A DNA stretch of 64,000 bases, taken from contig CM052851.1 in assembly GCA_028534125.1 (NCBI GenBank), forward strand, positions 4,650,001-4,714,000, in the 5' to 3' direction. The notes below the pieces were generated by a model that worked only from the letters and a program-made list of their open reading frames with translations, searched no databases and was not told the origin of the DNA. This DNA comes from Lama glama. Lineage: Eukaryota. How positions within the stretch are numbered: the first letter of the stretch is position 1; every line of letters starts with the position of its first letter. The translations under genes were made by a program, and so were the position numbers. Positions 11,421-15,000 of this stretch are shown here, one piece after another.

Positions 11421-12099
11421 AGTCCCAGCTCCCCTTGGCCGCATAGCCTCTCCCCTCCTGGGCCGGAATCCCTGGAAGTTGCGCTCCTGGTTCACCTTGG
11501 ACCCCGCTCTGAGGACTCTCGGGGATGCTCTGTGGCTGAGAGCGACGTCCTGACCCCCGCTCAGTCCCTGCCAGGTCTCCTAGGCTGATCTGGGGCTCAC
11601 TGCGTATTCCTGCAGGCACTGCACATTCCGTGGGACCCAGAACTGGGGCCGAGCGCGGTCCCACAGCGGAGACCATTTCTGTCTGTCCTCCCCATTACCT
11701 GGCCTCCAAATCCTGCGCAGGAAGGAGACTGTTGGGAGTTGACTAGGACCCACAGAGGAGCTAAGCTTGCTCTGGCTTCAGCACCTCACACCTCCTCCAT
11801 ACACATACCAGTACCTGGGAGGGGCCCCAGGTTGGGTCCTGCAAAGCCCCTGAGGACTCAACAGTGTAGGCCTGAGGTCAATGCAGTTCCACCTTCAGAT
11901 ACCCCCTTGGGGAGAGGCAGCCAGATCTGTGCTGGGATCCTGTTCTGCAACTGGGGAAACTGACAGCCAGGTGGTTATAATGCCGATGCCCCGTATTGCA
12001 TCCTCCCCACCTCTCTTCATGCAGCTTGGGAGGGTTGGGGCTTCTTGGGATGGTCTTGGGATGGGTGGAGGCTGACCCCTGCTTCTCTATCCTGCAGTC

Positions 12100-15000
12100 A
12101 TGTTCCGCAAAGTAGTTCGGCAGAGCAAATTCCGGCATGTGTTCGGGCAGCCTGTCAAGAATGACCAGTGCTATGAGGACATACGAGTGTCCCGTGTCAC
12201 CTGGGACAGCACCTTCTGCACCGTCAACCCCAAGTTCCTGGCGGTGATTGTGGAAGCTAGCGGTGGGGGCGCCTTCCTGGTACTCCCCCTAAGCAAGGTG
12301 GGCCCCATCGGGACTGGGGAAAGGCTGGAGGCAGCCTGGTCTCACCTGCCAGGCCTCTCTGCTCACTTCACAACCCATAATTTGACCATCCCCACACTGC
12401 TGGACCAGTGTTGTAATCCAGATTTACTGCCTGGGAGGTGTTAACTCAGATGGAGACAGTCTTTTATTGCTGCAGAATCAGGGTCAGAGGCAACAAAGAT
12501 TTCCTGCTCACCTGGTGATACCTGTCAGGAAGAGGTGGGTCAGGTAGATGCAGAGTGAGAGTCATAAGTGGTCCACCTGTGGGCCAGGGCAATTGCATCA
12601 TTTCACCTCCATGGAGGGGAGTGGGGACTAAAGCTCTGGAAGGGATGGAGCCTGGGCGTCTTAGATCCACCTTAACTGCCCACCTCGTGCCTACAGACGG
12701 GCCGCATTGACAAGGCCTACCCAACAGTGTGCGGACACACAGGACCTGTCCTGGACATTGACTGGTGTCCCCACAATGACGAAGTCATCGCCAGTGGCTC
12801 GGAGGACTGCACAGTCATGGTGAGGCGTGGGGCTGTGGTTGGGCTGGGGTCACAAGTGTGGCTCAAGGCTCCTGGCAGCCGGGCCAAGCAGAGGCCTCAG
12901 CTGACCTCCCCACCCCTCCCTAGGTGTGGCAGATCCCAGAGAACGGGCTGTCCTCCCCGCTGACGGAGCCGGTGGTGGTGCTGGAGGGGCACACCAAGCG
13001 TGTAGGCATCATCACCTGGCACCCGACGGCCCGCAACGTGCTGCTCAGCGCAGGTCTGCACCACTGCTCCCACCCCACCCCTTGCCACACACAGCTCCGG
13101 AACACCCCCCACCCTCTCCCAGACCCATCCGACACCCGGGAAGGCTGAGGCCCACAGAGGTGGAGTGCAGGGTCTGGTCCCAGGAGGGTGGTCAGAGCGG
13201 GCCTGGTGGGCTGATGGCCCCCCGCCCAGCAGGCTGCGACAACGTGGTGCTCATCTGGAACGTGGGCACAGCTGAAGAGCTGTACCGCTTGGACAGCCTG
13301 CACCCCGACCTCATCTACAACATCAGCTGGAACCGCAATGGCAGCCTCTTCTGCTCTGCCTGCAAGGACAAGAGCGTGCGCATCATTGACCCCCGCCGGG
13401 GGACCCTGGTGGCAGTACGTGGCCCTGGAGGGTGGGGATGACAGAGTGAGGGGTTCTATTGGGGCGCCACACTGACCGCTCCATCTCCCTTGCAGGAGCA
13501 GGAGAAGGCTCATGAGGGGGCCCGGCCCATGCGGGCCATCTTCCTGGCTGATGGCAAGGTGTTCACCACAGGCTTCAGCCGCATGAGTGAGCGGCAGCTA
13601 GCGCTCTGGGACCCAGTGAGTGGCTGTGGACAGTCTGAATGGCAGGCTCAAGACTTGGGCTCCACCCTGGGCAAGGAGGGGCGGGGTCACCCTGGAGAGG
13701 CCTGTTGTTCCCAGGTTCACAGCCTGGCACCCAAGGCACTCGAGAACCTGAACCCTGCCATCCTCTCCTCTCCTTGCCCCCTGCCCTCTGGCCTCCCCCA
13801 CCGCCTGCAGCCACCTCCACATCTGCCCACAGTGTTCTTGCCCTTTCCTCCTTTGCTTGTCTGTTCCCGCCCGGCTGCCCTTTGAAATCCGGTACAGAGG
13901 TCCCCTCTTCCAGGAAGCCTCCCAGCCCTTCCCCGGAAGTGTTCTGCCCCACAGCCTTATCCTTCTGTATAGTGACCTCCAAGGGCCCCTCTGAGACAGG
14001 GACTTGTGCTGCATGGCACCCCTGGCTCCCATGTGGTGGGGACTTCCTCAGCATTTGCTTGGTGGCCTAGGAGTATTCTGAAGTCCTGGAGTAGGCAGGG
14101 AAAGTGGGACCATGGGAGCCAGGAGGGGATGGTGGGGCACTCCGTGTGGGCAAAGGGTAAGTGTGGTAGGGGCAGTGCCAGCCGGCTTGTGAGGCTGGCT
14201 AGGGTCAGTCCTGATGGGGAAGGAGGAGGGAGGTTCTGGCCTGGCTTGACTGCCCCTCACCCTGTGTGCCAGGAAAACTTCGGGGAGCCTATGGCCCTGC
14301 AGGAGCTGGACTCTAGCAACGGGGCTCTGTTGCCCTTCTATGACCCTGACACCAACGTGGTCTACGTCTGTGGCAAGGTGGGGCTGGGCAGGGCTGAGGG
14401 GTGCAGGGAGGAGAGAGGCAGGCCCGGGTGTTGACCCCTGTCCCCTCCCACCCTGCAGGGTGACTCTAGCATCCGGTACTTTGAGATCACAGACGAGCCC
14501 CCCTACATCCACTTCCTGAACACGTTCACTAGCAAAGAGCCGCAGAGGGGCATGGGCAGCATGCCCAAGAGGGGCTTGGAGGTCAGCAAGTGCGAGATTG
14601 CCCGGTAAGAAGGGCCCGGAGGCAGCCGGCCATAGGGTGATGGGTCTGCCTTCGGGGCAGGAAGTGGACCATGGGCATCCCAGGTGAAAGGTCAAGTCAC
14701 AAGAGGTTGCTCAGGAGCACGAACGGGGCCCCAGGGTCAGTGGGAGGGGCTGGGATAAGGACTAGAAGTGAAGCGTGGAGGCAGCTGGGAGAGCTGGTGA
14801 GGGAAGGTTTCACCCATGGGTCCTCCCTCCCCTCCTTTCCCAGGTTCTACAAACTGCATGAGCGCAAGTGTGAGCCCATTGTCATGACTGTGCCAAGAAA
14901 GGTGAGGCCACCTGGTTCCCTGCCCACCAGCTCCCTTCTGTAGCAGACAGGCCACACATGGGTGACCAAGGTGAGGCCTGTGAATGGGACATGGCCAAGT

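Follow-up and report, generated by a model that had tools for sequence, protein, structure and literature searches.

Does the llama make a coronin-1B (CORO1B, of which we take coronin 2 to be a synonym) that can still be switched by PKC? The question arises from one coding start in the window, the 64,000-nucleotide stretch of Lama glama DNA analysed here, where the original prediction had read ATG TTC CGC AAA, without a serine at position 2. Its account of Ser2 as an Arp2/3 switch regulated by PKC and SSH agrees with passages of two papers, which describe that phosphorylation of Ser2 by PKC lowers Arp2/3 binding, that SSH dephosphorylates coronin 1B, that the dephosphorylated protein or its S2A mutant binds Arp2/3, and that the S2D mutant binds WISp39 and SSH (PMC4384738; PMC9170525). 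Phosphorylation of coronin-1B at Ser2 is also described in activated mouse mast cells, in a passage of PMC3171099. The reading that we prefer, with a probability of roughly 0.7, is that of an intact camelid CORO1B that has lost Ser2, as have all sampled cetartiodactyls, most likely when three bases were deleted once in their ancestor, and that is predicted from its sequence to be blind to PKC at this position.

The CORO1B gene and its coding start

The identification of the gene as CORO1B stands, as the encoded protein falls with 1B and apart from 1C in a protein tree in which CORO1C forms a separate paralog clade (100/100), and the homolog identities agree. At 488/488 residues it is identical to the Vicugna pacos RefSeq coronin-1B (XP_072826519.1, P0314), a record whose name field is silent on Ser2; it matches a Camelus ferus record at 467/470 residues, the human construct P0047 at 94.3% (460/488) and mouse coronin-1B at 94.4%. 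With the human and mouse proteins it has in common the Pfam core domains, as in Bos and Macaca, the equivalent of Arg30 and the GPR152 and PTPRCAP flanks, whereas it differs from them in lacking Ser2, starting Met-Phe and carrying Gly at 256, and in its predicted Met retention and NatC/E acetylation. The flanking genes were located by tblastn at 5397-6893 (GPR152, 81%) and 18264-18884 (PTPRCAP, 77%), and GPR152-CORO1B-PTPRCAP is presumably also the human order. The GPR152 ORF is intact at 5397-6896 (+), and the main exon of PTPRCAP lies at 18264-18887 (+); several database models (e.g. P0006) join CORO1B to these neighbours, and such fusions are likely annotation artefacts. Further ORF fragments at ~800-3620 (-), 19400-24900 (-) and 27030-29600 (-) resemble CABP4, RPS6KB2 and CARNS1, names that we assume from their translations. 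A genome search for coronin first exons returned at least six matches (eight candidates scored), of which one among the matches listed is of the CORO1B type; no second CORO1B copy with Ser2 was found among them. The llama loci matching CORO6 and CORO1A begin Met-Ser, i.e. they keep Ser2, and the CORO1C locus (L002) begins Met-Arg.

The features of the gene, in positions of the window, are as follows.

11200..11290 (5' end approximate), + strand: probable non-coding exon 1, lying within a CpG island (CpG-rich bin 11001-11500; donor; database models)
12095..12111, + strand: acceptor of intron 1, followed by two bases of 5' UTR and the codons for M-F-R-K (sequence and homolog comparison)
12098..12297, + strand: exon 2, the first coding exon (100% identity to Camelus ferus record P0006)
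12697..12819, + strand: coding exon 2 of 10 (gene model)
12924..13053, + strand: coding exon 3 of 10 (gene model)
13233..13414, + strand: coding exon 4 of 10 (gene model)
13496..13615, + strand: coding exon 5 of 10 (gene model)
14273..14377, + strand: coding exon 6 of 10, with the other change common to the clade, a Gly at human position 256 (gene model and comparison)
14459..14604, + strand: coding exon 7 of 10 (gene model)
14844..14901, + strand: coding exon 8 of 10 (gene model)
15729..16007, + strand: coding exon 9 of 10, including the variable unique region (gene model)
16168..16293, + strand: last coding exon, with the coiled coil and the stop TAG (gene model)

The ten coding exons have canonical AG/GT ends and add up to 1467 nt, encoding 488 aa with one terminal stop, and exon 2 consists of 198 coding nucleotides (12100-12297) preceded by two untranslated bases (200 nt in all); both the 198-nt first coding exon and the 488-aa protein of the original prediction are thereby confirmed. 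Ahead of coding exon 4 there is a tandem CAG CAG acceptor (13228-13232), whose upstream AG, if used, would add one codon. The coding start itself was re-read with the same result, running from the acceptor AG (12096-12097) through TC, ATG (12100-12102) and TTC (12103-12105) to CGC AAA, which ends at 12111. Comparison with homologs places the missing Ser codon of other vertebrates between ATG and TTC. Upstream, a donor (GTAAGC) follows position 11290, and its predicted junction with exon 2, which draws on database models, is likely: the cat, marmoset, fox and bat models agree with it, and the divergent readings of exon 1 in the sheep, goat and narwhal models are what a 5' UTR would lead one to expect. 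Spliced at these sites, the transcript would carry G at position -3 relative to the ATG. The claim that the non-coding exon 1 holds no ATG that could restore the serine was borne out by a scan from 10901 to 11369, which found no ATG. In-frame ATGs do occur in intron 1 (11881, 11980, 11986, 12019 and 12061); they could only extend the protein ahead of Met and therefore cannot insert a Ser between Met and Phe.

Distribution and history of the Ser2 loss

To place the llama sequence among its relatives, 426 proteins were gathered in two homolog searches and three cluster look-ups, the latter sampling at most 15 members of each cluster. After exclusion of 66 proteins, of which 31 had the N-terminus of a different coronin and 35 had no coronin N-terminus, 360 records with a 1B-type motif were counted, isoforms and near-duplicates included. 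Among these matches listed, 334/360 start M-S-F and 26/360 start M-F, the latter comprising 21 named cetartiodactyl records, four records without a species label and one from Condylura cristata. Ser2 is absent from 21/21 named cetartiodactyl records among the matches listed; they represent 14 genera (Vicugna, Camelus, Sus, Bos, Ovis, Capra, Cervus, Hippopotamus, Eschrichtius, Kogia, Tursiops, Monodon, Delphinapterus and Neophocaena), with peccaries, giraffids, pronghorn and chevrotains outside the set, and a reading of the name lists found no cetartiodactyl record with Ser2 among the named matches listed. Among placentals the residue is kept in rhino, ass, carnivores, bats, shrew, desman, primates, rodents, afrotheres and xenarthrans, and elsewhere among vertebrates in marsupials, platypus, birds, reptiles, amphibians, lungfish and bichir. 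The star-nosed mole CORO1B (P0225, XP_004682626.1), a single predicted record, starts M-F-R-K. One record labelled Oncorhynchus mykiss (P0254) opens with the 1B-type M-S-F-R-K, which sets it apart from the remaining salmonid records of its cluster.

These counts change the scope of what had been proposed. A natural variant without Ser2 does exist in the llama, but it is not peculiar to one genome, as all 21 named cetartiodactyl records and the mole record share it; conversely, the refuting idea that Ser2 is commonly absent in mammals holds for one order, while the residue is present in the other sampled orders except for the mole. On the available sequence records, the loss is a fixed trait of all sampled Cetartiodactyla, and the Ser2-less proteins are already in public annotation, in both RefSeq and UniRef. 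Four fish proteins (P0097, P0162, P0164 and P0002) also begin Met-Phe, like cetartiodactyl CORO1B. As candidates for a Ser-less CORO1B, the fish M-F-R-R proteins were rejected on their placement in the 1C clade of the tree; their starts show that a type I coronin can function with such an N-terminus.

The history of the change was traced on a tree from which the first residues had been left out. It unites the 12 cetartiodactyl rows (93/94), which need a single change in 100% of 200 bootstrap trees, and it places Condylura beside Galemys, which has the serine (94/91); the minimum number of Ser2 changes on the tree is two. The simplest account is a single one-codon deletion, most likely fixed in the stem cetartiodactyl, which lived about 60 million years ago. 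In an AU test, a clade of the mole with the cetartiodactyls was not rejected (p = 0.135), so an independent loss in the mole rests on the tree, on the species phylogeny, which sets the star-nosed mole apart from cetartiodactyls, and on one predicted record; with these together, the mole loss would probably be a separate one. Retention of Ser2 from bichir and lungfish to humans argues for selection, and its loss may have needed compensation.

Predicted consequences and alternative readings

The coronins regulated by PKC at this residue (1A and 1B) carry Ser2 followed by x-R/K, a motif that llama CORO1B lacks. The protein resembles the S2A laboratory mutant, which likewise has no phospho-acceptor at position 2 and, in passages of PMC4384738, binds Arp2/3 but not WISp39/SSH; it differs from that mutant in being a natural, fixed deletion with Met rather than Ala as its predicted first mature residue. 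It also shares the absence of the Ser2 site with CORO1C, in line with the CORO1C-like N-terminus of the original prediction; CORO1C nevertheless binds Arp2/3 (PMC3339874). Unlike CORO1B, CORO1C has a second actin site (PMC3339874) and is reported to be under CK2 control at S463 (PMC3268813). By analogy, cetartiodactyl CORO1B would be S2A-like, competent for Arp2/3 and not switched off by PKC, and would not be recruited to the phospho-dependent WISp39-SSH complex; a PKC-insensitive CORO1B of this type would resemble CORO1C and would be buffered by paralogs.

The loss is also expected to alter N-terminal processing, as the original prediction anticipated and as the rules given in passages of PMC11735805 indicate: NatA acetylates a Ser exposed once Met has been removed, NatC and NatE act on a retained Met-Phe, and UBR ligases bring about the degradation of NatC substrates left unacetylated. 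The NatC class is defined by a hydrophobic residue directly after Met, and the llama sequence fits it with its Met-Phe start. Other mammals would thus remove Met1 and expose Ser as the first mature residue (NatA class), and cetartiodactyl CORO1B would keep Met before Phe (NatC/E class). If Met is kept, the mature chain would amount to a same-length Ser-to-Met swap, with 488 residues in the human register, and the deletion may have been tolerated because length and register would be preserved. It precedes Pfam DUF1899, whose first residue is number 4 in Bos and number 5 in Macaca, and the Bos ortholog (P0309, 95.5% identical to llama CORO1B) has the Pfam arrangement DUF1899, WD40 propeller and WD40_4. 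The equivalent of the actin-binding Arg30 is kept as Arg29 in llama and Bos. In the AlphaFold model of the Bos ortholog (mean pLDDT 56.6), residues 1-40 score under 50, so the model is uninformative for the N-terminus, and a C-terminal helix at 447-484 supports the coiled coil of type I coronins. Thr41 (12220-12222) is common to the llama, Vicugna and Camelus records, and the non-camelid orthologs shown have Ala.

It is possible, if unlikely, that the codon was lost while PKC control persists with regulation little changed, either at another residue, Ser8 (human Ser9) for instance, or by way of oligomers mixed with paralogs that carry Ser2. A crude scan for S/T-x-R/K motifs in 10 ingroup and 16 outgroup rows found the Ser2 motif in 0/10 and 16/16, respectively, and Ser8, in a basic context, together with nine further sites in 10/10 ingroup rows; the persistence of these sites means that PKC control may have moved. 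CORO1A and CORO6 keep Ser2, and PKC inhibition relocalises human coronin 2 in a study whose main text never names Ser2 (PMC13485075, in part). Yet the same sites are present in the human protein, for which the S2A change is enough to lock in Arp2/3 binding, according to passages of PMC4384738, and no replacement S/T-x-R/K motif was gained in the clade, no ingroup-only site occurring in more than 2/10 rows.

More doubtful is the view that selection favoured the loss, on the cetartiodactyl stem and once more in the star-nosed mole, because it freed CORO1B from PKC, perhaps together with Gly256. In its favour, an otherwise very stable residue was apparently lost twice at one place, and an alignment of 39 rows has gaps in just two columns across human residues 1-400, one of them position 2. 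The second clade-shared change, Phe-Gly at human 255-256 in the propeller (14279-14284), follows a similar distribution: Gly256 occurs in 11/11 ingroup rows and 0/23 other placentals, and, among pattern-matched records, in 20/22 Ser-less and 0/143 Ser-bearing ones. No phenotype is known to link these animals, however, the single predicted mole record is without Gly256, and the grouping of the mole with cetartiodactyls survives the AU test. The Ser2 loss was probably near-neutral and, with paralogs to buffer it, not an adaptation.

An alternative transcript or start that supplies a Ser-bearing N-terminus is highly improbable: some database models have N-terminal extensions and exon 1 contains two in-frame CTG codons, but the exon reads ATG TTC directly, every extended cetartiodactyl model retains M-F-R-K, the upstream frame is not conserved across species, and the matches listed include no second CORO1B copy. 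Least probable of all is an error in the llama genome, since an M-F start shared by every named cetartiodactyl record across the 14 genera is neither chance nor error, and it rules out a species-specific variant as well. In a run search, the share of sampled words present was 0.94-0.99 in 14 DNA runs (four organisms) and 0.19-0.33 in six RNA runs, values that describe word content rather than reads over the start site and carry no weight as evidence here.

Meaning for coronin biology in cetartiodactyls

In literature that combines coronin 1B phosphorylation with cattle, pig or artiodactyls, the loss goes unremarked in titles and abstract openings, and subscription papers and supplements may bear on it; the accessible part of a coronin phylogeny paper (PMC3203266) mentions the Ser2 site once and notes no loss. 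PMC8193582 was set aside as a source on Ser2, its matching passages referring to Ser295 of Arp3B. The loss brings no new gene or system: it concerns one phosphosite in a redundant family, and its effect may be small. A coronin specialist is likely to find it curious and testable, and its interest for comparative biology is modest but real.

The absence of Ser2 is a clean clade marker, and phospho-Ser2 coronin-1B antibodies, which have been used in mouse, lack their target residue in cells from pig, cow, sheep and camelids. What has been modelled for PKC and coronin-1B in cells of human and rodents may not hold in these large-animal models. We put forward tentatively, at somewhat less than an even chance, the broadest form of this proposal, in which a whole order (pigs, cattle, sheep, camelids and whales) and, separately, the star-nosed mole would have dropped a PKC-to-Arp2/3 switch kept since the bony fishes, leaving a constitutive, NatC-class CORO1B, so that lamellipodial control by PKC and CORO1B stability in livestock cells would be wired unlike those of human and mouse. 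Cetartiodactyls offer a natural experiment on how far the Ser2 switch matters in living animals.
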